From a virus (taxonomy: Duplodnaviria; Caudoviricetes), in the IMG/VR virus record IMGVR_UViG_3300046779_000069, positions 1-25,610 of that record: a stretch of 25,610 nt of DNA, one strand, 5' to 3'. Position numbers and translations under genes: made by a program. Numbering within the stretch: position 1 is the stretch's first letter; each line of letters starts with the position of its first letter. The notes below the pieces were generated by a model that worked only from the letters and a program-made list of their open reading frames with translations, searched no databases and was not told the origin of the DNA. Below are positions 364-24,437 of the stretch, piece after piece.

Positions 364-420
364 CGGTTGTTCATGGAATCTCCTCTGAGACTTAGCCCCG
401 CCTAGTGCGGGGCATTTTTT
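364..420 (+). ncRNA. Candidate small RNA with an anti-SD / anti-start-codon tract
   Basis: Lies between the predicted promoter and a U-tailed terminator. Contains GTTGTTCATGGAATCTCCTCT, the reverse complement of AGAGGAGATTCC-ATG-AACAAC. Confidence 0.35.
395..420 (+). terminator. Rho-independent terminator
   Basis: Stem GCCCCGC (395-401), loop CTAGT, stem GCGGGGC (407-413), then ATTTTTT. It sits at the junction of convergent gene blocks. Confidence 0.85.
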
Positions 421-3400
421 ATTTCTTTGCCGCCTTCTCTTCGCGGTCCAACTTCTTAGCGCTTGGCTCAAGGATTTCGACGAGCTGCGGGTAGAACTTC
501 TTGTCGATGGGGAAGCCACGATCCGAAACAATCTTGCGCTGCATTTGTTTCTTCAACGAAGCCGACAAGTCATCACCACCGATGGAGTTCATTGGGTTCT
601 TTGAGTTGAACTTAAAGATGTTCTCGAACGCTTTGCTGACATCCTCATCGTTACCTTTATCAATCTCCAGCTCCAAGCGGTCCATCAAGCTCGTGCGCTC
701 ACGTTTAACCTTCATCACTTCGCCTTGGAGTTTGAAGATAGCTTCGCGGCGTGCTTGGAGTCCCTCGGTTGCAAAGCCAAGTGATTGCGCAATGAGCTGG
801 CCTTGAGTGAACTCATCCTTGTCCTTGATGATCGCACCGGAGGTAGTGGTCGCGCCCTCTTTACCATAGCGTGCCGCAGTCATTGGTGCACGGAAGATAG
901 CAGGCATCAAAGTCTCCATACCTTGGAAAATCTTGCCTTGGTTGAAGTAGTCCACCGCCTTGGGGATTTGTTTGACAAACAGCGATGCACCGGGGCCGAT
1001 CAAAGACATGAAGTAGTCTTGCACTTCCGCAGAAGCAGTAGCGCCTTCTTTCACTTCGGGGAACCACATGTTGTTCATCGACAAGCTGCTGCTAATGTCG
1101 TAGCCGGTTAGCGCGGCAATCAAACCACGGTCAAGCAATTCATCGAGCGTATGGTCGCCGACCTTCACATTACCGAAAGTCTTAGGCAGCCAAATGTTGC
1201 GGAACCAGAACTCCAAGTCGCGACCTTCCAGCGGATCGTCCTCACCGTCACCACGCAAACCGTTCAAGATGCCTTGCAGCACGCCGAAAGTAAAGCTGAT
1301 GCCGGGAATACCGACCATGCCAGCCAATGCGTAGGACATGGTGAGTGAACCAATAAACTGCTGTGCGGCTTCTTTGCGCACCTTGGGGTCCGACTCCAAC
1401 GAAATGGCGCGGTAGAAGTTACGCACGAAGTATGTAGTCACAAACGCAGGGAACATCTTGAACTGGAACAGCGAGCGGCCCATCGGCTTGTGCGCATTCA
1501 GCAGCACTCTATGTTCTTGGTCGGCCAGCAAACCACGGGGGCGGTTTGAGGCGTGATAGTTACCCAGTGCCTCATGGCTTTCTTGCTCGGCCAAACGCAG
1601 GGCTTGCTCGTGTGTCTTACCCTTTTCTCTGTTCAAGCGATACGAAGTCATGAACGTTAGCTCACGAATCATGCGCTCGGCATGGTGGAACAACGCAGTC
1701 ATAGCGTTGCCGGTGCCACGGAGAACCTTACGCGCTGTGCTCTGGTTGAGAGCAGTTGCTTCGTTACGGCGGTTGCCCAAGTCATAGGCCAGCGTGGTTT
1801 CGCTGATGCCGTGGTCGAGCATGTATTGAGCAGCGCGCTGTTCGTCCGCAGTCAAACTTGTCAGGTTGGACATAGTCGGCATCGTGAACTTGCCGTCTTT
1901 GTCGGTAACGCCCAAACCGTTGAAGATGTTCATGGACTTACCCAAAGCCGCAGCAGTCTTGACCATGCCGTGTTTGGACGACAGCACAGGAGCTACGAAG
2001 ATAGGGATAGCTGTGAACTGAGACACCATGGTCTTGATCGAAGTCATCAACCACAAGAACGCCGATTTGTTAATCAAGTTGGAGGCTGCGAAACCGATGC
2101 TGCTCTCTGGGTCAGGGCGAACCTGCTGCTCTGTGCGAATACGCATCTCGGTAACGAACTCACCCAAACGTGACTTGTCGGGGTTGCCTTGCAACGAAGA
2201 TTGCGCACGCTCAATCTGGTTCATGATGCGTGGGCCGTATTTCAAGCGAGCCAACTGGCTAGCCGAGTCGGTACCAGACACCACGAAGTTGCGGTGAATA
2301 TCACCACCGAAGCCAGCCTTACCTTGACGGTGCATGTACTTGCGACGGAAGCTGCGCTCTGGGAGCGTGTGCAGGTACAACTGATAAATCTCGTCCTTGA
2401 GCTTGTCGGCGTCAACTTCTGTGCCGCCCTTCTTCCCAGCGTCGATGCTGTTGAAGATTTCCTTGAGCATGGTGCTCGCATCCATGTCTTGTTTGCGGGC
2501 GTTGGTCAAGTCGTTGCCGGAGTCAATGTCTCCGTCTTCGATCATCTTTTCAAGGGTGCGTGTATCTCCAGACTCATTGAGTTGGCGCACGCGGGCGCGC
2601 AGGAAACGCTCTCGGTCGAAAGCGCTCTCGAACATTTGGAATTCACCGCTCTTACCTTTGCCGACGCGAGCCCAATACTGACCGTAGCGCATCAGTGGGA
2701 AGTACGGATACAGCTTCTTGCCTTCTTCGTACATCTTCTTGATCTCAGCGATCAACTTACCTTTGGGGCTGTTGGGGTCGTTGGCTTTGCCAGACAAATC
2801 TGACTGCTTGATCTGTTCCTCCAGCAGCATGTGATACAGCTCGTGGTTCTGTTTATAGAAGTCACGCACCTCAGCGTACAACTGCTTGCTTGTATCAGTC
2901 AGGCCGCTCCACAACTTGTCGAGTCGTGGGTTGCGGATAGTAGCCGTGCTTGGGTCGTAGGACGACAGCGTGGTGGCGTGCATCACGTTGGCCAGCTTCT
3001 GGTATTGGTCCGCATCTTTAGAAGCCAACTCTTGGAGTCGGTCGGCGACCTTAACCATGGCGTTCGTGCGCTTGTTACGCATTGCGCTCATGTCACTGAT
3101 ACCTTGCCATGCTTCTGTGATGCCCTTGATGCCGAGTCGATCAGCCCAAGCTACGATGGTTTCTGTTTGCAACGCTGGGAGCAACTGCTGCAAAGACTTG
3201 AGGGCGAAGGACTTCCAGCCTGACACCATCACATCGACAAACTCGTTCTGGTCACGCAGCTTGGTCAAGTCGGTAATGGTCTCATTGCGGATGCTGTCGG
3301 CGAGATTGGACTTCTGCAACTTAACAGTAAGTGCATCCACCTTCTGCTTCTTCTGACGCACCTTCTTCTTGACCTGCGAAGAAACCTCGGCTGGCCCGAC

Positions 3401-6358
3401 GGCTGCGGCTTGTTCAGCAGCCAATTGAGTGCGCATACCTTTGTCCAGCTTACCGCTAATCAGTTGGTCGGTGATGTCGATGATGTCCGAAAGAGCGTTG
3501 GTTGTGTCTCCGCTCATGCCGAAGAAGGCACGGACGTTGTCCACGAACTGAGTCCACAAAGACTTCTTAATGTGGCCGGGGGTGTTGCGCAAGAACTTCT
3601 GGAACTCAGGGTCGGTCATTGCATAGGCAACAAACTCTCGTGGGTCGTCAAAGATTCCAGCGTCCACCAACTCTTCCATGTAGGCAGGTGTGATGCCACG
3701 GTCGATGTACTTGTTCAGGCGCTCTGCCGTCAAGTTCATTGTTTTAAGCAGGTCGTTGTAGGCACGGATGAGGCCCGCATCGCTAACGCGTCCACTCTGG
3801 ATGGCGTCGAGTGCCAAGTCCATCTTCTTGTTGAGCGCAGCGTGCAGCAGCTCGTGCAGCACGGTAACGTTGTTGGCGCCTTGTCCTGTACCTGCGCTGG
3901 TACCACGAATGAAAACATAGCGCTCGCCTGTCTTGGTGATGCGCAGGAACAAACCACGGGACACATTCCAGTCGTCAATTGCACCGCCTTGGGCGATCTG
4001 CGTAGGCGTGGGTTCGCCTTCCTCAACCACTTGGAACTTCACATCCTTGACGAATGGAAGCAGTCGGCGAGCCAACAACTGCTGGAATGTATTGCCTGTC
4101 TTCAGAACAATAGCGAGTGCCTGTGCACCGGTGGTGGCAGTCTTGAAGTCGTCGTTGCCCTTGCTGGTTGTGCCGGTGGTGGACTTAGAAATCTGACGCT
4201 CCATGCCAGCTTTGATGTCGGCGAGCTCTTTGGGCGTTACGTTGGCGGCCTTCAGCTTGTCGTTGATGCGTTTAACAAAACCAGTTCCCTTGAGAGATTT
4301 CTGGAGCATCAACAATGACTTGATAGCCTGCACGCGACCAATACGCTTTTCGTCCTCAGCACTGACCAAGGCTTCACGCGTTTCAATCATCGCTGGGTCA
4401 ATCGGCGCCAGCGCAGTGTCGAGCAGAGTTTCCGCAGCTGTAACAGCTTTGTTGTTGCGGTTGTAATCCAACCGTTGTTGCTTGCGTCGATCTTCAGAGA
4501 CAGCCTTCTGCTCAGGTGTAAGCGCCTTGCGCCCGCCGATACCCTTGCGGCTTGGCTTGGGTTTCTCTTCAGCTACGGCTTCTTCAGTAGGCGCTCCTTC
4601 GAGCGTGGCTTCCGCAGGCACGTCAACCTTCTCGGCAATCACCTCGGTGGGTTGGCCAGCGAGTTCTTGCACCTGTGTTTCGGCTTGTGGGGCTTCAATA
4701 GTTTCGGCGCCAACTGGGGCTGCTTCGGGGGCAGGGGCTGCTTCAATGCCGGGTTGCGCAGGGGCTTCTAATGCAACGGGCTCGACTGCTTCTCCTGCAA
4801 CAGTAGGTGCAACATTCTCTCCAGCAGGAACCATTCCATCGGTTGTAGGTTCTCCAACTCCTGTGGTGGGGGCGATTTGATCGGGCTGTCCAACCAACTC
4901 AGGGCTGACTCCACCTGCTTCGGTGATAGGTTCTCCAACATCTGCTGCTCCTGTTGCTTCTCTCTCGGCAAGCGCATCGTCCTGTGCCTCCCTTGTTGCT
5001 ACCGCAGTGGCTTCTTCAAGTGCTTCGGCCTCGGACATACCAATTTGTTGGTACTGATCCTTGAGGTCCATGATTCGTTCGGGGTCGGCTTGAACGCCTT
5101 CCAACCCTTCGGGTGTTGGGGCAGCCTGCTCTTGCTTGGCTTCATCGGCGACGATCTGTTTGGCCAGACCAACCGCCTCTTCTTCCATCAAACCGTTCTT
5201 TTCTTGTAGCTCAAGCGCAATGTCCTGCACGCGTTCTTCGGGTGTGCCGGTAACTCCAGCCGCCTCTTGGAACTTGTCGATGGCTTCACCAGCTTCTTTT
5301 CTACGCAGCTCTTCTTTGGCTTGTAACGCTTCACGCGCACCGGCAGTAGCACCCAAACCAGCGCCAGCCAAACCTTCCAAAGTAGCCTGCCCAACCACGC
5401 CGCGCATGGTGGGTACATCAAAGCCTTCACGCTGAAGAGCTATGTTTTCTGCGAGTTGTTCTTGGCCACCTTCCGCCGCTTCACCTGCGAATTCCTTAGC
5501 ACCGGTAACACCAGCTTGTTTGACGGCTCCACGACCAGCGATCTTTGCGGTCTCCTGTGCGGCTTGTTCTGCGGCTTCTTTGGTAGCCGCTTTCGTAACG
5601 ATGCTCTTGGCCAACTGACGTGCAGCGGCAGGCTCGAAACCTGTAGTCGCGCCGATTGTGCCGAGGGCGGCACCGCCCAGAATCATGTCTAAGTTCTTGC
5701 CGCCGTACTCCTGCGCCACTTGCGCACGAGCTTCGATCTGTTCTGGCGACATGTCTGTCTTACCAAGCGCGTCCTTGACGGCGTCATAGATAGAACCCTT
5801 GACGGTACCTGCACCCATGGTGGCACCAACACCTGCGCCAACTGCGGTAGCAGCGAGTGCGCCAGCACCGAGCACAGAAGCACCAAGCCCAGCAACGATT
5901 GCAGGAGCTGAAGTACCCAGCGCGTTTACGACTGTGTCGATAGGAGCAACAGAGAACGCTTTCACGGCTGCCGTGACTTGGTCGGCAACACCCTTATCCT
6001 CCGCTTCCTTCATGATGCGGGCGATCTCTTGGGAGTCCTTCTTGGACTGGGCGCTATACAAAGCACCGATGTAGTCCTCGACCCCCTTGATGGAGTTGGA
6101 CACGTCACTACCCGCGCCGAAGGCGTCAGCGATCATACGCACACCGGTGGCCACACCGGATACGGCTTTCAAGGGGACGTCGGCAACTTGCCGCAGGAAG
6201 GACTGATCTTCCGGCTTTGGTTCAGGCTTAGCGAACTGCGCCCAAGGGCCAGACTCTACGGGTTTTTGTTCCGCAAATTGTGCCCAAGGACCCTGTTCTT
6301 GGGGTTCACTCGTTTCAGCCTGTTGTGTTTTGAATGAATCCCAAGGTCCTGTCGCCAT
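419..6358 (-). CDS. Large internal virion / DNA ejection polyvalent protein (1979 aa) with zincin-like metallopeptidase and PLxRFG-type domains
   Basis: N-terminal GPW repeats, Gly/Ala hydrophobic segments and an acidic P/A/E linker. HELLH (3842-3856) is followed by EFVAYAMTDPEFQKFL. YFPLMRYGQYW (2672-2704) is PLxRFG-like. Last gene of the structural block. Confidence 0.8.
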   Translation of the reverse strand: MATGPWDSFKTQQAETSEPQEQGPWAQFAEQKPVESGPWAQFAKPEPKPEDQSFLRQVADVPLKAVSGVATGVRMIADAFGAGSDVSNSIKGVEDYIGALYSAQSKKDSQEIARIMKEAEDKGVADQVTAAVKAFSVAPIDTVVNALGTSAPAIVAGLGASVLGAGALAATAVGAGVGATMGAGTVKGSIYDAVKDALGKTDMSPEQIEARAQVAQEYGGKNLDMILGGAALGTIGATTGFEPAAARQLAKSIVTKAATKEAAEQAAQETAKIAGRGAVKQAGVTGAKEFAGEAAEGGQEQLAENIALQREGFDVPTMRGVVGQATLEGLAGAGLGATAGAREALQAKEELRRKEAGEAIDKFQEAAGVTGTPEERVQDIALELQEKNGLMEEEAVGLAKQIVADEAKQEQAAPTPEGLEGVQADPERIMDLKDQYQQIGMSEAEALEEATAVATREAQDDALAEREATGAADVGEPITEAGGVSPELVGQPDQIAPTTGVGEPTTDGMVPAGENVAPTVAGEAVEPVALEAPAQPGIEAAPAPEAAPVGAETIEAPQAETQVQELAGQPTEVIAEKVDVPAEATLEGAPTEEAVAEEKPKPSRKGIGGRKALTPEQKAVSEDRRKQQRLDYNRNNKAVTAAETLLDTALAPIDPAMIETREALVSAEDEKRIGRVQAIKSLLMLQKSLKGTGFVKRINDKLKAANVTPKELADIKAGMERQISKSTTGTTSKGNDDFKTATTGAQALAIVLKTGNTFQQLLARRLLPFVKDVKFQVVEEGEPTPTQIAQGGAIDDWNVSRGLFLRITKTGERYVFIRGTSAGTGQGANNVTVLHELLHAALNKKMDLALDAIQSGRVSDAGLIRAYNDLLKTMNLTAERLNKYIDRGITPAYMEELVDAGIFDDPREFVAYAMTDPEFQKFLRNTPGHIKKSLWTQFVDNVRAFFGMSGDTTNALSDIIDITDQLISGKLDKGMRTQLAAEQAAAVGPAEVSSQVKKKVRQKKQKVDALTVKLQKSNLADSIRNETITDLTKLRDQNEFVDVMVSGWKSFALKSLQQLLPALQTETIVAWADRLGIKGITEAWQGISDMSAMRNKRTNAMVKVADRLQELASKDADQYQKLANVMHATTLSSYDPSTATIRNPRLDKLWSGLTDTSKQLYAEVRDFYKQNHELYHMLLEEQIKQSDLSGKANDPNSPKGKLIAEIKKMYEEGKKLYPYFPLMRYGQYWARVGKGKSGEFQMFESAFDRERFLRARVRQLNESGDTRTLEKMIEDGDIDSGNDLTNARKQDMDASTMLKEIFNSIDAGKKGGTEVDADKLKDEIYQLYLHTLPERSFRRKYMHRQGKAGFGGDIHRNFVVSGTDSASQLARLKYGPRIMNQIERAQSSLQGNPDKSRLGEFVTEMRIRTEQQVRPDPESSIGFAASNLINKSAFLWLMTSIKTMVSQFTAIPIFVAPVLSSKHGMVKTAAALGKSMNIFNGLGVTDKDGKFTMPTMSNLTSLTADEQRAAQYMLDHGISETTLAYDLGNRRNEATALNQSTARKVLRGTGNAMTALFHHAERMIRELTFMTSYRLNREKGKTHEQALRLAEQESHEALGNYHASNRPRGLLADQEHRVLLNAHKPMGRSLFQFKMFPAFVTTYFVRNFYRAISLESDPKVRKEAAQQFIGSLTMSYALAGMVGIPGISFTFGVLQGILNGLRGDGEDDPLEGRDLEFWFRNIWLPKTFGNVKVGDHTLDELLDRGLIAALTGYDISSSLSMNNMWFPEVKEGATASAEVQDYFMSLIGPGASLFVKQIPKAVDYFNQGKIFQGMETLMPAIFRAPMTAARYGKEGATTTSGAIIKDKDEFTQGQLIAQSLGFATEGLQARREAIFKLQGEVMKVKRERTSLMDRLELEIDKGNDEDVSKAFENIFKFNSKNPMNSIGGDDLSASLKKQMQRKIVSDRGFPIDKKFYPQLVEILEPSAKKLDREEKAAKK

Positions 6359-6361
6359 CTG

Positions 6362-8824
6362 TTACACCTTTTCCCAGTTCGCTTGATCTGCGGGGTTGCC
6401 GCCTTTGAAGCGATAGCCTTGCATGATTTGCCCGGGTTTAATTGTAGGCGCAGCAGGTGTTTGTTGGGTAGGGGTTTCAGTAGGCTTACCGCCTTGTGGT
6501 TTCTTGCTTGAGATAACGGCAGCCACTTGGTCACGGATGCGAGCAGCTTCCGCGTAGTCTCCCTTTTGCATCGCCTTGATGTACGGACCGTTCACCTCCA
6601 GCGCGGCTTTCAATTCAGCACTCTCAGCCTTAGCTTCAGCGGCGTTAGTAGCTGCTTCAGCACGAACAGAACCGGGGTAACGACCGAGCTGGTCGGCGGC
6701 AGTAGCACGAGCCTGAGCCATGGTTTCTGCTCTCTTGACGGGGTCGGTAGCGATAGATGGGTCTTTGGCCACCCTTGCATCGAACAGAGCTTGAGCCTGC
6801 TTGTCCAAATCGGTAGGTTTGTTAACCCCGGCCATAGAAGCCGCAGCCTGACGCTTGGAGTTCTCGATACCTGCTTGGATGGTAGCCTGCTTCTCGGTAA
6901 TGTTGATTCGACGTTCGAGAGCTTCTTTTTCTTGCGCTCTTGACTTGTCGTACAGAGCCTCGGCTTTGCCTTTGAGGCCGTCTGCACGTGCTTGTTCTGC
7001 GGTAGCCAAAGTGATTTCGGACTGGCGCAAGAGGCGGTCGGCTTCGCGCTGTTCCTTCTTCATCTTCACAACTTCTTGACCGAACGCACCCATGGCGCCA
7101 GCAATAGCACGAGAAGTACTACCGGGACGCAGCAAAGCTTGAGACGCAGCAAGTGCGCCAAGGCCGACGCCTTCATCAGACATTTTGCTCAATCCAGCGC
7201 GCTCTTTTTTGACGTCCTCCATGTAGGGGGTCAACGCACTTTTTCCGTATCTCGCTTCAACAGCAGGCATCGCTGCACTGATCCCAGCTTCGATTTGCTC
7301 GGGTGTCTGAGAAATATCCTTCTTGCCTAGCTCGCTCAGCGTATTCATATAGTCATTGACGCCACCACCAGCGAACGCAACCACGCCACCACCGGCCATA
7401 CGCTCAGCAACTTGAGGTGTGATACCGGAGGCCAAACCGCGGCGCTCAGAAGCGCGCATGCCCATCTCGCTTTGAATGGCTTCGAGTTGGTCCATATCAC
7501 CACGGGCTTGTGCAGCCTGCGCTGCTTGTTGGAGCTGCTGATCTGACAGTTTGCTTACGATGCGTCCCACGTTGTCGGGAGAGTCCACAGAACCGCCGTC
7601 GGCGTAGGTCATGCCACCCTCGGCCATAAACTTGCTCAAGCCATAGGCACCCAAACCAATAGAACCGATCTGTTGCGCCATGCCGGGGTTTGGCTCGTAC
7701 ATACTCTTGGCTGTTTGTTGACCCAGAGGTAGACCGCGAATCAAGTCGCTGAAGAAGCCCAACTGCTTGTATGGGTAGTTCTGCTCGTTCTGGAAGTCTT
7801 CGTAAGCTTGAGACAGACCTTGCTGACGCAGTGCCTGCTGCTGGCCACCGTAAGCGGATTGCAACTTGTTGATGTCCATGCCTTGCTGGAACTGCTGACC
7901 GCCCAAAGTACCAAGCTGGCCAGCACCTTGAAGCGCAGTTTGAAGCCCCTGTAACCCAAGACCAGCACCGTATTGGCGTGACTGTTCACCGAGCTGGTTG
8001 GCAGCTTGACCGTATTGAGCACCGAGGCTGGCGGATTGCAGACCTTGGCCAGCACCAAACTGACGAGACTGTTCCCCCAGTTGCTGCGCTTGCAGGCCGT
8101 ATTGTTGGTTTGCTTGTTGTGCTTGCAGTCGGCGAGCTTGGTCAGCGTTGAATTGCTGCTGTGCTTGAGTAAACGCAGCTTGTTGGCCGGTAGCCTGAAT
8201 GTCGCCCAGTTGTGTAGCTAGATTGCGCTGGCGCTCGGCTTCAACCAAACCTTGACGAGAACCACCAAACGCACCGGCGCCGACGGCTTGAGCCTGCTGA
8301 CCTTGACGTGCTATATCCGATGCGCGACGAGCTTCGCGCTGTTGAACATCCACCACATTCTGCATGTAGGGTGACATGTAATCTTCGGCTGCACCGGGCT
8401 GGTTAAACGACTGAGTGCCGATTCGGTCGGCACGGAAGCGCCCAGCTTGGTATGGGTCAGGAGCTTGGAATTGGTTTTGGAACTGACCGGCTTGGTAGTT
8501 GGTACCGAGCCCACGCCCTGCAACTTCTGCGGCAACATCAATACCCGCACCGGTGGCACCGGAAGTCTGCATGTTTGCGGCGTTTTGTTGCGCCTGCTGC
8601 TGCATTGGGCTGAACCCAGCGATACGGGGCTGATCGTAGGCTTGGTACCCTTTCTCGGAAAGAGCTGCGCCTTTCTCTAGGGTTGACTTGGCGTAAGGAC
8701 GAGCCCATTCTGGGAGCTCTTGGATTTGAGTGCCGCCACCGCTGCTGGAGCCACCACCGCCGTCCATGGGGTACAAGCGGATACCGTCGCGTGAGTAGCC
8801 TTCAGATTTAAGCTTTGGAATCAT
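6362..8824 (-). CDS. DNA transfer / ejection (pilot-like) protein, 820 aa
   Basis: Gln/Ala/Gly-rich helical N-half (LPEWARPY, YMSPYMQNVVD, GAFGGSRQG), central MAEGG/YADGG/MAGGG/FAGGG motifs, C-terminal GYRFKGGNP.D..NW motif. ATGA overlap with the GNAT gene. Confidence 0.75.
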   Translation of the reverse strand: MIPKLKSEGYSRDGIRLYPMDGGGGSSSGGGTQIQELPEWARPYAKSTLEKGAALSEKGYQAYDQPRIAGFSPMQQQAQQNAANMQTSGATGAGIDVAAEVAGRGLGTNYQAGQFQNQFQAPDPYQAGRFRADRIGTQSFNQPGAAEDYMSPYMQNVVDVQQREARRASDIARQGQQAQAVGAGAFGGSRQGLVEAERQRNLATQLGDIQATGQQAAFTQAQQQFNADQARRLQAQQANQQYGLQAQQLGEQSRQFGAGQGLQSASLGAQYGQAANQLGEQSRQYGAGLGLQGLQTALQGAGQLGTLGGQQFQQGMDINKLQSAYGGQQQALRQQGLSQAYEDFQNEQNYPYKQLGFFSDLIRGLPLGQQTAKSMYEPNPGMAQQIGSIGLGAYGLSKFMAEGGMTYADGGSVDSPDNVGRIVSKLSDQQLQQAAQAAQARGDMDQLEAIQSEMGMRASERRGLASGITPQVAERMAGGGVVAFAGGGVNDYMNTLSELGKKDISQTPEQIEAGISAAMPAVEARYGKSALTPYMEDVKKERAGLSKMSDEGVGLGALAASQALLRPGSTSRAIAGAMGAFGQEVVKMKKEQREADRLLRQSEITLATAEQARADGLKGKAEALYDKSRAQEKEALERRINITEKQATIQAGIENSKRQAAASMAGVNKPTDLDKQAQALFDARVAKDPSIATDPVKRAETMAQARATAADQLGRYPGSVRAEAATNAAEAKAESAELKAALEVNGPYIKAMQKGDYAEAARIRDQVAAVISSKKPQGGKPTETPTQQTPAAPTIKPGQIMQGYRFKGGNPADQANWEKV

Positions 8825-9228
8825 AATTCAATCCTCATCACCTTATGGGTGTTTGCCATGCCCATCTTCTCGTACATGGGCACCAAGTTGTCCTGACACC
8901 AGCACTGAGCTTTCGTAGCCCCATGTGCTCGCATCCAATTCATAGCCTCTTCAAACACGTGCTGTTTGACGATGCCTTTACCACCCATCAAGTTCACATG
9001 CGCTACACGCGCACGGGGGTAGTCAATAAAATCAACTGTCACTGCACCGGTCACGCCTACGCCGGGTTCGTCCCACACCAAAAGGTGTGATTGGCCTGTT
9101 CTTACCGCATACTCAACCTGCTCGATGGTCACGGCTGAGGGGTCAATATCAATCGCTTTCTGGAGCATGGGCGCGGCTGTCGGCCACACCTGCGGTAACT
9201 CTCTGGGTTGGATGTGATACAGGGGCAT
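8821..9228 (-). CDS. GNAT-fold acyltransferase-like protein (T7 gp13-like position)
   Basis: 135 aa with beta-strand pattern LLVW...GAVTVDF...AHVNLMGGKG, then A..HGATKAQCWC and MYEKMG, typical of GNAT C-terminal motifs. It lies among the ejection genes. Confidence 0.65.
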   Translation of the reverse strand: MPLYHIQPRELPQVWPTAAPMLQKAIDIDPSAVTIEQVEYAVRTGQSHLLVWDEPGVGVTGAVTVDFIDYPRARVAHVNLMGGKGIVKQHVFEEAMNWMRAHGATKAQCWCQDNLVPMYEKMGMANTHKVMRIEL

Positions 9229-9230
9229 CT

Positions 9231-10406
9231 TTACGCTGGCAGAAGTTTGTCGGCGCGGCTGTCTTTAGCCACTTTGCCTTTACCGATGGACTTCTTGCGC
9301 GCAGACTGCACACGGTCAAGCATGGCGTACAACTTACGTGCACCTGCTTCAGTAGAGCCATTACCCAACTCAGAAACGATACGTGCAGGTACCACAAACT
9401 CCCCGTCAGCTAAACGCGCAGGTTTCTTTTTGCCGATCACAGCAGGGATAGAGTCAGATACACCATCACCGGGCCCACGAAGCAGTCGGCCACCATCAGA
9501 ATAAGAACCCAAGTCAGAGAGTCCACCTCGCGCCATAGCGGTGTACGGTTCTTGGAAGTCGGGGGTCGGCTCAACTGCGCCTCCTTCGGCCAGCATCTGG
9601 CCAGTCATGCGGTTCACTCCGGTGTCGGCAGTGCCAGCCACTACGTTTTGACTCACGGGTGTTTGCCATGGTGTTGCGTACGCATGGCCAGTAATGTCGG
9701 CTTGAGGGTATCCGGTGTTCTGGCCCACAGCGTTAGCTTGAGACATGGCCTCAACTGGACCACCGCTCATATAGCCACCTGCGGCATAGCCACGGATCGA
9801 CTTGGCTTCTTCAGGAGTAATGTTCTGATACCCAGCATTTGGGAAGTAGCGTTGTTGGCGGCCAAAGTCTTGGCCTAGATTGTCGTAGCCGGGCACGTCT
9901 GGTGCTGGCAAAGGTGTTGCTGTGCCTTGGTTGTATTTCAAACGTTGAGGCATTGTGCTGTCACCGACAGGCATTTGAGGTTGTTCAGTTGTAGGCATCA
10001 TCATTGGTGCCGTAGCTGCAAGTCCAGTTTTGAGTAAACCAGAACCACCACCAACTCTAGCCATGAAGGCATCACGCCCAGCTTGTGAACCCAACCCCTG
10101 AGCTCCGGCTGTCATTTTGTCCATTCCACCCATTGCGTTGATACCAGCAGTTGGGTCACCCGCAGCGGCGGCCATCTGCGCGCCTTCTGGAACGGTAGTA
10201 GCTGCGGAAGCTGCCAAACCTTGTCCAATACCGGCACCGCCATAAGCACCCAGACCGGCCATCAAACCTTTATTAAGGTCGCCAGTACGCGCAGTTTGAA
10301 GACCGCCCACAATCAAGCCAGCGGTCATTGGGTTAATGGTACCGCCCGATGCAGCCATAAGGCCAGCACCAGCGATTGTTGGGAGCATGGAAGATAAAAA
10401 GCCCAT
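9231..10406 (-). CDS. Internal virion protein (391 aa) with a C-terminal tape-measure-like GPGDG-SDSIP-GEFV domain
   Basis: Hydrophobic Gly/Ala/Met-rich N-terminus (MGFLSSMLPTIAGAGL), several xAxGG motifs, and C-terminal GPGDGVSDSIPAVI...ARLADGEFVVPA. GAGG RBS upstream. Confidence 0.75.
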   Translation of the reverse strand: MGFLSSMLPTIAGAGLMAASGGTINPMTAGLIVGGLQTARTGDLNKGLMAGLGAYGGAGIGQGLAASAATTVPEGAQMAAAAGDPTAGINAMGGMDKMTAGAQGLGSQAGRDAFMARVGGGSGLLKTGLAATAPMMMPTTEQPQMPVGDSTMPQRLKYNQGTATPLPAPDVPGYDNLGQDFGRQQRYFPNAGYQNITPEEAKSIRGYAAGGYMSGGPVEAMSQANAVGQNTGYPQADITGHAYATPWQTPVSQNVVAGTADTGVNRMTGQMLAEGGAVEPTPDFQEPYTAMARGGLSDLGSYSDGGRLLRGPGDGVSDSIPAVIGKKKPARLADGEFVVPARIVSELGNGSTEAGARKLYAMLDRVQSARKKSIGKGKVAKDSRADKLLPA

Positions 10407-22272: not shown

Positions 22273-22701
22273 TTAAGAAATGCGAATGATTGCGGCAGTG
22301 CTGGTGACAGCAGGGAACTGCACAGTGAAAGTTGTGGTTGATGTCTTGTCGCCGCCGAAGTCCAGCACGCAAACGCTTGGGTTTCCAGAACCTGATTTGT
22401 AGATCAGCGCGCCGCGTGCAGTCAAAGCTGAAGTCCATGTGACATTCGCAAACGACAAGTACACCGTGGCGTTACCTGTTTGGTTACCGATTGTAGGTGT
22501 CTGCGTAACAGTAAGCGTTTCGCCGCCAGCGGTGTAGCCCGAAGCCACAGTCTCGCCATCAGTTGTGTACGCAGTTGTGTCTGGACCAATCGACGCTGCA
22601 CCGGTGTACAACGCGATCTTGAATGTGTCTGTGCCAAAGTCAAAGTCGCCGTTTGGCAACCCAAGCTTGAACGTGTTTGTTGCGCCTTGAGTGATCGCCA
22701 T
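22273..22701 (-). CDS. Virion structural protein (142 aa)
   Basis: FK......FDF..DTFKIALYT...GYTAGG..L...ARGALIY...VLDFGGDKTS...F.VQFP pattern. TGATG coupling. Confidence 0.78.
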   Translation of the reverse strand: MAITQGATNTFKLGLPNGDFDFGTDTFKIALYTGAASIGPDTTAYTTDGETVASGYTAGGETLTVTQTPTIGNQTGNATVYLSFANVTWTSALTARGALIYKSGSGNPSVCVLDFGGDKTSTTTFTVQFPAVTSTAAIIRIS

Positions 22702-23340
22702 CAGGTCACCGCCTCAAATTTGTTTGATTTACGCACATTGTCTGCCCCCGAAATTACCTGCAAATTGTATGGGGTGTGAAGCCCAGACACAAGTTTGCCT
22801 TGAAGCGGAAGCACATGGTCAACATGCCAAGAAAAACCAAATAGCTTGGTGCGCAAAGCGGCCAGCTCGTATGCCTGCTCAATCATCCATTGATCGTCGG
22901 GAGTAAGCCATTTAGGTGTGCGGTTAATTTTTGCTAAGCGGCGTTTGACTGTGTGCGCCAATGTACGACCAGAGTTAAGCGATTTGGTTTTCTTTGCGTA
23001 CGCTTTGACTTTCTCGGGATTGCGTGCACTCCACGCAACAATAATGGCGCGGCATCTGTCTCTGTTTTCTTTGCGGTACTGAGCGTCGCGTTCGCGTTTC
23101 TTTTGCGCCATCTCTGGTTTTGCCATCATTTTTAGCGTGTCTTTACGACGTTGCGCCTGCGTACGTTCTTTATTTGCGGCTCGATTAGCCTTCAATGTTT
23201 CTTTAGCGCACTCTACACAAGCGCCAGACACGCGCCGAAGCCCCTCAAGCTCAGGGTGTTTAGCGCACGTTGAGCCATAGCACGTAGGTAGCCCAAGCGC
23301 TTTAGCTTCTTGTCTGTTACGGCGCATCATGTCACCGCCT
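22699..23340. repeat. 16-bp direct repeat (15/16) flanking the HNH gene
   Basis: catcaGgtcaccgcct at 22699-22714 and catcaTgtcaccgcct at 23325-23340. Confidence 0.8.
22701..23330 (-). CDS. Free-standing HNH endonuclease (209 aa)
   Basis: HVDHVLPLQG..VSGLH...NLQV.....N..KSN HNH motif, N-terminal C..H...CVEC, very basic. Sequence is visibly AT-richer than its neighbours. Confidence 0.92.
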   Translation of the reverse strand: MMRRNRQEAKALGLPTCYGSTCAKHPELEGLRRVSGACVECAKETLKANRAANKERTQAQRRKDTLKMMAKPEMAQKKRERDAQYRKENRDRCRAIIVAWSARNPEKVKAYAKKTKSLNSGRTLAHTVKRRLAKINRTPKWLTPDDQWMIEQAYELAALRTKLFGFSWHVDHVLPLQGKLVSGLHTPYNLQVISGADNVRKSNKFEAVT

Positions 23341-24242: not shown

Positions 24243-24437
24243 TTAGGCTCCTTTGCGACCGGTGCTGCGTTGGTTCATGACCTTGGCCATGTTGCGACCA
24301 TACTTGAGCATGTCGGCGTTGGTCTTACCACCGGCCTTCATCTTGGTCATAGGCTTACCGGGGTGCATGGCTTTCTCGTGCTTGTGCACGGCCTTTGCAG
24401 CGGTCTTTTTATCTTGTGCGAGGTCTTTCTTGTCCAT
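24243..24437 (-). CDS. Small basic Lys/Met/His-rich protein (64 aa)
   Basis: TAAGGAG RBS 6 nt before ATG at 24437. MDKKDLAQDKK...AVHKHEKAMHPGKPMTKMKAGGK. Confidence 0.78.
   Translation of the reverse strand: MDKKDLAQDKKTAAKAVHKHEKAMHPGKPMTKMKAGGKTNADMLKYGRNMAKVMNQRSTGRKGA

Follow-up and report, generated by a model that had tools for sequence, protein, structure and literature searches.

What is one short sequence motif doing, again and again, in proteins that a phage likely carries inside its head? The question is raised by the late region of an uncultured phage, here a window of 25,610 nucleotides (positions 1 to 25,610 of IMG/VR record IMGVR_UViG_3300046779_000069). A sequence-only reading of it had noticed the pattern [MYFL]-[AKS]-x-G-G in a 391-amino acid (aa) protein, an 820-aa protein and a 64-aa basic protein, and had proposed a shared signal for cleavage or for capsid targeting that turns them into polyproteins. 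We put at about 0.55 the probability that the motif is cut before its small residue—Phi/AxGG, with the slash marking the cut—and that the cut would free cargo from assembly anchors.

The phage is likely short-tailed. Its late genes, all on the minus strand, include those for two SU10-type adaptors, fibres with S74 chaperones, a GH19 lysin and a nozzle-like 742-aa protein; next in order come a 217-aa gene and the genes for the 391-aa, 135-aa, 820-aa and 1979-aa proteins. Head genes were supplied by a near-identical record (G001) and by two complete relatives (G003 and G004). In its capsid protein, G001 is 73% identical to Yong1/MinM2 and 63–65% identical to the Pelagibacter phages HTVC023P/027P.

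All ten peptides listed in the sequence-only reading are where it placed them, on the minus strand, and nine fit its pattern; the tenth, YMSGG (9759-9773), has Met at position 2 and does not. Each window protein was set against 5000 composition shuffles and against a second null in which its GG dipeptides were held fixed. The resulting p-values are optimistic, because the pattern was drawn from the same proteins: four motifs against 0.47 expected in the 820-aa protein (p 0.0014; GG-fixed p 0.014), four against 0.43 in the 391-aa protein (p 0.0014; GG-fixed p 0.005), and one against 0.03 in the 64-aa protein (p 0.026; GG-fixed p 0.08). The other 24 of the 27 window proteins, among them the Gly-rich fibres, the nozzle and the 1979-aa protein, have no match at all.

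Counts over whole protein families, together with a control on GG dipeptides, make a better test, since the pattern was read off the window proteins. [MYFL][AKSN]xGG was counted in 160 loci, observed versus shuffled. Neither homologues nor alignment pairs are independent of one another, and the counts here and in the alignments below are therefore effect sizes and not p-values. The motif is enriched in, and restricted to, three classes of protein. The 391-aa family has 317 copies where 46.5 are expected (present in 76/76 sequences), the 820-aa family 111 where 25.9 are expected (51/62), and the 64-aa family 22 against 1.1 (17/25); the 66-aa family has 8 against 1.6. Portal (1 versus 3.7) and terminase (0 versus 2.5) show no enrichment. 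The motif prefix precedes 289/1015 GG dipeptides in the 391-aa family, 77/539 in the 820-aa family and 176/358 in basic core proteins, compared with 13/1254 in control families, and the motif recurs in the equivalent proteins of the cultured phages HTVC023P, Yong1 and GB2A. Counted against a composition-shuffled null, as the earlier reading had proposed, the motif is borne out, in the window and in the relatives.

The carriers are 11–17% Gly and the pattern was defined only once the data had been seen, so a by-product of Gly/Ala-rich composition, or of a signal in the DNA (a ribosome-binding site, for instance), has to be considered. Equally Gly-rich families, however, are depleted of the motif (nozzle, 3 versus 20.6; 234-aa, 0 versus 7.1), and the GG-fixed null is rejected; motif positions, moreover, use GGA codons less often (19 and 37 of 428) than the carrier genes do overall. 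We give this explanation almost no credence. Descent from a ribosome-binding site or start codon was rejected on codon use and on the GG-dipeptide controls. Codon use at the motif resembles background, and copies differ in their codons, from which it follows that the constraint acts on the protein.

Where, then, does the motif lie? In the 391-aa family, conservation starts at it. Of 6185 internal alignment starts, 2857 fall within -4..+2 of the small residue, with a peak at -2..0, compared with 462/9123 for random positions and 1270/6117 for GG dipeptides outside motifs. An optional module of ~60 aa has the motif just upstream in 28/28 homologues that possess the segment, and the C-terminal module, ~89 aa long and opened by the last motif, has it upstream in 73/73; the positional test is weak for LAEGG (17/73). 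That the motif is shared, as had been claimed, is supported, and it is positionally conserved.

The C-terminal module is itself informative. Its profile matches 9413 cluster representatives at an expectation value (E) of <=0.001, and among tape measures it matches gp16 of phage Douge (8ZDO; E 1.9e-9), in two copies, each after YAxGG, as well as that of JBD30 (8RK3; E 0.0015) and PHROG tape-measure families. These profile matches make it a homologue of the distal module found in siphophage tape measures, and the link to tape measures drawn by the earlier reading stands; the homology covers only the last motif site of the 391-aa protein. A GB2A copy used as query found 854 phage records at E<=1, and most of the 40 listed are tape measures. 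In a second clade, 67/76 modules are opened by xxxGG. Pfam, NCBIfam and single-sequence PDB searches gave the module no name, and its AlphaFold model is poor (pLDDT, the predicted local distance difference test score, 58, and under 50 for residues 1-25). Fold searches with it gave no meaningful match (Foldseek best E 3.8, VIA-align best Z 3.0). In Caulobacter phage GB2A, gp65 (L422:16459-18201) is annotated as a tape measure, yet its gene stands in the place of the ejection module and its C-terminal module is the same; the annotation is probably mistaken.

There is another explanation: the motif might be a flexible turn or joint that opens a mobile module derived from tape measures, spread by duplication as a recombination seam and read by nothing in particular. 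Copy number (2–7 in each of 80 relatives of the 391-aa protein), the short tandem pairs in which copies occur, the position of the GB2A motif mainly at the module start, and the breadth of the module among tape measures would all suit such a joint. Against it, the differing codons and background-like Gly codons indicate conservation at the protein level, unrelated proteins keep the same prefix, and tandem copies are set apart by spacers of 7–8 aa that are seen again in many homologues. We think a joint of this sort improbable.

The sequence-only reading had the motifs clustering at boundaries between segments of distinct composition; this is true of the 820-aa protein, which is 19% Gln before residue 400 and 7% after residue 485, and true only weakly of the 391-aa protein. 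Among 114 distinct homologues of the Gln-rich N-domain, 50 are fused to what follows, 30 end in the motif plus a short tail (mostly 16–30 aa), and 34 have a stop codon. Measured from a fixed landmark, the small residue of the fused and short-tailed forms comes after a median of 53 residues, and the stop of the 34 motif-less forms after a median of 55. Motif and stop codon are thus interchangeable, and since the domain ends at the same spot by either, the motif likely marks where the proteins would be cut; the product of the stop codon would be the product of a cut before Ala. Yong1 and HTVC023P have the split form, and the ~69-aa module between the motif pairs resembles the start of the second gene (E 0.007 for Yong1; by inspection only for other split forms). 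Alignment ends are enriched at the motif (530/4795 versus 111/5123). An earlier test for splits by module profile returned 0 in 45 loci, diverged second genes being missed, and the landmark test was used in its place.

The landmark test would fit equally well if the motif began a tag. An uncut docking motif, with the tail downstream of it, might bind portal, scaffold or the capsid interior and so load proteins into the prohead. We consider this unlikely, though it merits a serious hearing. The small basic proteins that relatives encode, several at a time, between capsid and adaptor genes are evidence for the cut, and they suit docking too. The motif is present in 108/180 of them, and in those with an ADG-x-A-x-RGKT tail it lies <=14 residues upstream in 60/60; the tail (median 27 aa) is preceded by 31–338 variable residues. 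Conservation downstream of the motif, its lack in the scaffold, and the lack of a protease candidate among the 125 open reading frames (ORFs) described below all agree with docking. The 34 tagless N-domains, the lack of a motif in the 1979-aa protein and the coexistence of fused and split genes do not. The 1979-aa protein, the largest of the ejection proteins, also makes a general capsid-targeting signal doubtful; the suggestion that survives is narrower, the motif being confined to some likely head-internal proteins, at the seams of their modules. Motif-free small basic proteins recur in the same interval (L100-L179), some with a DUF6321 tail, others of a 77-aa phrog_14910 type; a His-rich variant (L109:7565) is found there too.

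The case for cutting, and for the position of the cut, comes from two laboratory phages; statements here about papers cited by PMC number cover the part of each text available to us. The tape measure of phage T5, pb2, is cut after R1127 (Linares et al. 2023, PMC10038345), which yields pb2* and pb2C. The sequence there is R/AEGG, one of only two A-x-G-G in 1219 aa, kept in 120/120 close relatives; the part of that paper covered mentions no motif. In the cargo protein gp45 of phage crAss001, the ordered, portal-bound part is residues 425-552 (Bayfield et al. 2023, PMC10172136). It begins at the Ala of N-A-F-G-G, one of eight A-x-G-G in the protein, and in 19 gp45 relatives the invariant columns begin at the GG of this motif. 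The other modelled piece, 214-245, falls between two motifs, and the four stretches covered by mass spectrometry that the available text names span none. By analogy with T5 and crAss001, cutting at the motif, before the small residue, is likely. A cut exactly at the motif in T5 also speaks against docking, for which the order of A425-G428 on the portal wing of gp45 is a point in favour.

The invariant GG with a hydrophobic residue upstream invites comparison with viral proteases directed to GG, which do exist, and the sequence-only reading invoked those of adenovirus and African swine fever virus. Cutting after Gly-Gly, by an adenain/Ulp-like or JAB protease, seems to us very improbable. In T5 the chain is cut ahead of Ala, four residues short of the end of GG, so this analogy is probably wrong; A425-G428 belongs to the downstream ordered piece of gp45; conservation begins at -2..0 and not after GG; and no protease of these families gave a Pfam match among the 125 ORFs, many of them unannotated.

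If Phi/AxGG is cut, each protein would be synthesized with cargo and anchor in one chain; the anchor would dock it in the prohead, and a cut before the small residue would then release the cargo. The putative anchors are the C-terminal module of the 391-aa protein, the ~22-aa tail of split N-domains, the ~27-aa basic tail of small core proteins and the ~70-aa module of the 820-aa protein. From the four pattern matches in each, the 391-aa protein would yield pieces of 207, 65, 19, 11 and 89 aa, and the 820-aa protein pieces of 400, 7, 69, 8 and 336 aa. The most economical, if speculative, candidate for the reader is the tape-measure-type module itself, which would act both in cis and in trans by way of the invariant Asp and Glu that it contains. 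Another is a conserved 157-aa protein encoded between the scaffold and capsid genes of G001 (L081:5505-5978), 38–80% identical to counterparts in HTVC023P, Yong1 and three relatives (G003-G005), which belongs to no known family in Pfam or PHROGs. A DUF2201 zincin-vWA gene with an AAA ATPase gene nearby occurs in the early region of G003, G004, G005 and Yong1 (L087:15550-19458, L083:16813-19500).

Several results weigh against cleavage, beginning with the non-independence of the family counts already mentioned. The capsid (0 versus 8.7 in 79 sequences) and scaffold (2 versus 0.8 in 61) families, whose members are the customary substrates of maturation, are not enriched in the motif, nor is the 1979-aa family (6 versus 10.8). 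No prohead-type protease was found by Pfam or PHROGs in the 125 ORFs scanned (83/97 of G004, 41/92 of G003 and 1 of G001), many of which are unannotated, and the DUF2201 zincin is ruled out as a universal reader by its absence from HTVC023P, which bears the motif. Alignment starts in the 820-aa family are not enriched at the motif (35/4398). Not every seam is a motif, either: an optional leader of ~54 aa, ending NP-x-TGLPEA and present in 54/188 homologues of the 391-aa protein (L007:9167-9330, L010:3513-3680 and others), ends ~17 residues past its motif. The laboratory phages contribute objections of their own. The residue before the T5 cut (P1) is Arg, which is not hydrophobic. Lambda gpH is matured to gpH* and gpHC, at a site and by an enzyme stated as unknown, with a fragment of ~14 kDa and a gpH* of ~710 residues (PMC12617516); a cut at 733/734 predicts ~12.5 kDa. 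In the model of Bayfield et al., gp45 is a single uncleaved chain (PMC10172136), and the JBD30 authors speculate that cleavage of their tape measure follows the homologous module and does not precede it (PMC11445458). Finally, the module profile does not match T5 pb2, lambda gpH or crAss gp45 significantly (146, 10 and 109 of 200 shuffles, respectively, reach the score; hhalign E 0.47, 0.006—a weak pairwise link—and 0.44), and the links to these three proteins therefore rest on the short motif and its context. Bridging searches from T5 pb2 and lambda gpH found near-identical proteins only. The nearest named family of the module in the Atlas is crAss_CARG1 PF25725, the Pfam family of gp45 (score 0.84), a lead only, and the PF25725 profile matched 0/5 genomes.

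Table 1. Features of the ejection module and related genes, in window coordinates.
Feature	Position	Strand	Basis or remark
First protein of the ejection module (391 aa), likely inside the head; Gly/Ala-rich body that varies and conserved C-terminal module	9231..10406	-	ORF; position after nozzle and 217-aa gene
Motif pair YAAGG-YMSGG, start of conserved ~60-aa optional module, 391-aa protein	9759..9788	-	
LAEGG, end of optional module, 391-aa protein	9579..9593	-	
MARGG and YSDGG, start of C-terminal module, 391-aa protein	9489..9536	-	
C-terminal module, residues 303-391 of 391-aa protein; invariant G-x-G-x-G-x-x-D ... G-E-x-V	9234..9500	-	Tape-measure homology; candidate both for assembly anchor and for reader
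135-aa likely GNAT-fold protein between the 391-aa and 820-aa carriers; motif-free	8821..9228	-	Weak Pfam match, E 0.008
820-aa ejection protein; two separate genes in many relatives	6362..8824	-	phrog_4287 DNA ejection protein, E 1e-6
MAEGG-MT-YADGG, end of Gln-rich N-domain, 820-aa protein	7592..7627	-	Stop codon at this position in 34 relatives
~69-aa module between motif pairs of 820-aa protein	7397..7603	-	Similar segment begins second gene in split forms
MAGGG-VVA-FAGGG, start of C-terminal cargo, 820-aa protein	7361..7399	-	Motif in 7/7 and 4/7 homologues (positional test)
64-aa basic protein with MKAGG at 24327-24341	24243..24437	-	Family enrichment
1979-aa large polyvalent ejection protein; motif-free internal negative control	419..6358	-	LPD39, E 7.6e-10; motif 0 versus 0.57 expected

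A few neighbouring features deserve mention (coordinates of the main ones are in Table 1). At the place of the 135-aa gene, the proteins of G003 and G004 match Acetyltransf_1, and the family has 0 motifs where 0.6 are expected. In 42 homologues the optional leader is followed by GFL, matching the start of the window protein, MGFL; removal of the leader would expose the same N-terminal Gly as in the window protein, beside a likely GNAT gene. A 142-aa structural protein has YTAGG (22522-22536), the one conserved site in its family (7 versus 1.1) and probably a structural turn. Between its gene and that of an adaptor lies an HNH/endonuclease VII-like gene (22701-23330) that is absent there in the near-identical G001. 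Every relative examined has a gene for a GroES-like co-chaperonin between those for portal and scaffold (L081:4077-4487).

That tape measures and head-internal proteins can mature by proteolysis is known already. A site of the form A-x-G-G shared across podophage cargo was not found described in a literature search that covered few subscription papers, and the available part of Iyer et al. 2017 (PMC5512222) names no such motif. The usual assumption is that podophages package their ejection proteins whole. If the site is cut, a very abundant family of aquatic phages—its capsid patterns match about 14,000 IMG/VR stretches—builds its cargo as polyproteins, and the mature products can be predicted from sequence.

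How does this compare with systems already understood? T4 matures its head-internal proteins with the gp21 prohead protease, which removes capsid targeting sequences, and gp245 of SPN3US reportedly belongs to a similar prohead-protease scheme for internal proteins. The likeness is a short motif, many head-internal substrates and removal of the targeting pieces. Proteases of this type cut after Glu, and process scaffold and capsid as well, whereas in the window phage the scaffold and capsid families lack the motif, and the ORFs scanned yielded no such protease. The tape measures of Douge and JBD30 are alike in their significant homology to the C-terminal module, opened by YAxGG; the difference is that in the window phage the module terminates a podophage-type ejection protein. 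The available Douge text (PMC13033339) makes no mention of cleavage.

T5 pb2 is the one protein in which a cut at such a motif has been mapped: the cut at R/AEGG parts the ejected portion from a C-terminal piece anchored in the particle. It is a tail protein with a single site and Arg at P1, though, whereas the window phage has many sites, in several likely head proteins, with mostly M, Y, F or L at P1. The gene for crAss001 gp45 is the first after the nozzle/muzzle, a place like that of the 391-aa gene, and encodes several A-x-G-G, at one of which the ordered portal-bound piece begins. A G-E-F-V segment of lambda gpH stands between FATGG (733) and YATGG (778). It is tempting to see in all this a single maturation code, common to T5 and lambda tape measures, crassvirus cargo and the podophage family of the window, with the G-E-x-V module as a protease that cleaves itself and its partners; we regard so sweeping a scheme as doubtful. 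It does, however, make residue-level predictions on two open points, the site and enzyme of gpH maturation (PMC12617516) and the 420-A 'bridge' assumed for gp45 (PMC10172136). Were it true, gpH would be cut at 733/734, and gp45 would be a polyprotein and not a chain threaded through the portal. Both predictions can be tested on laboratory phages, in part from mass spectra that already exist.

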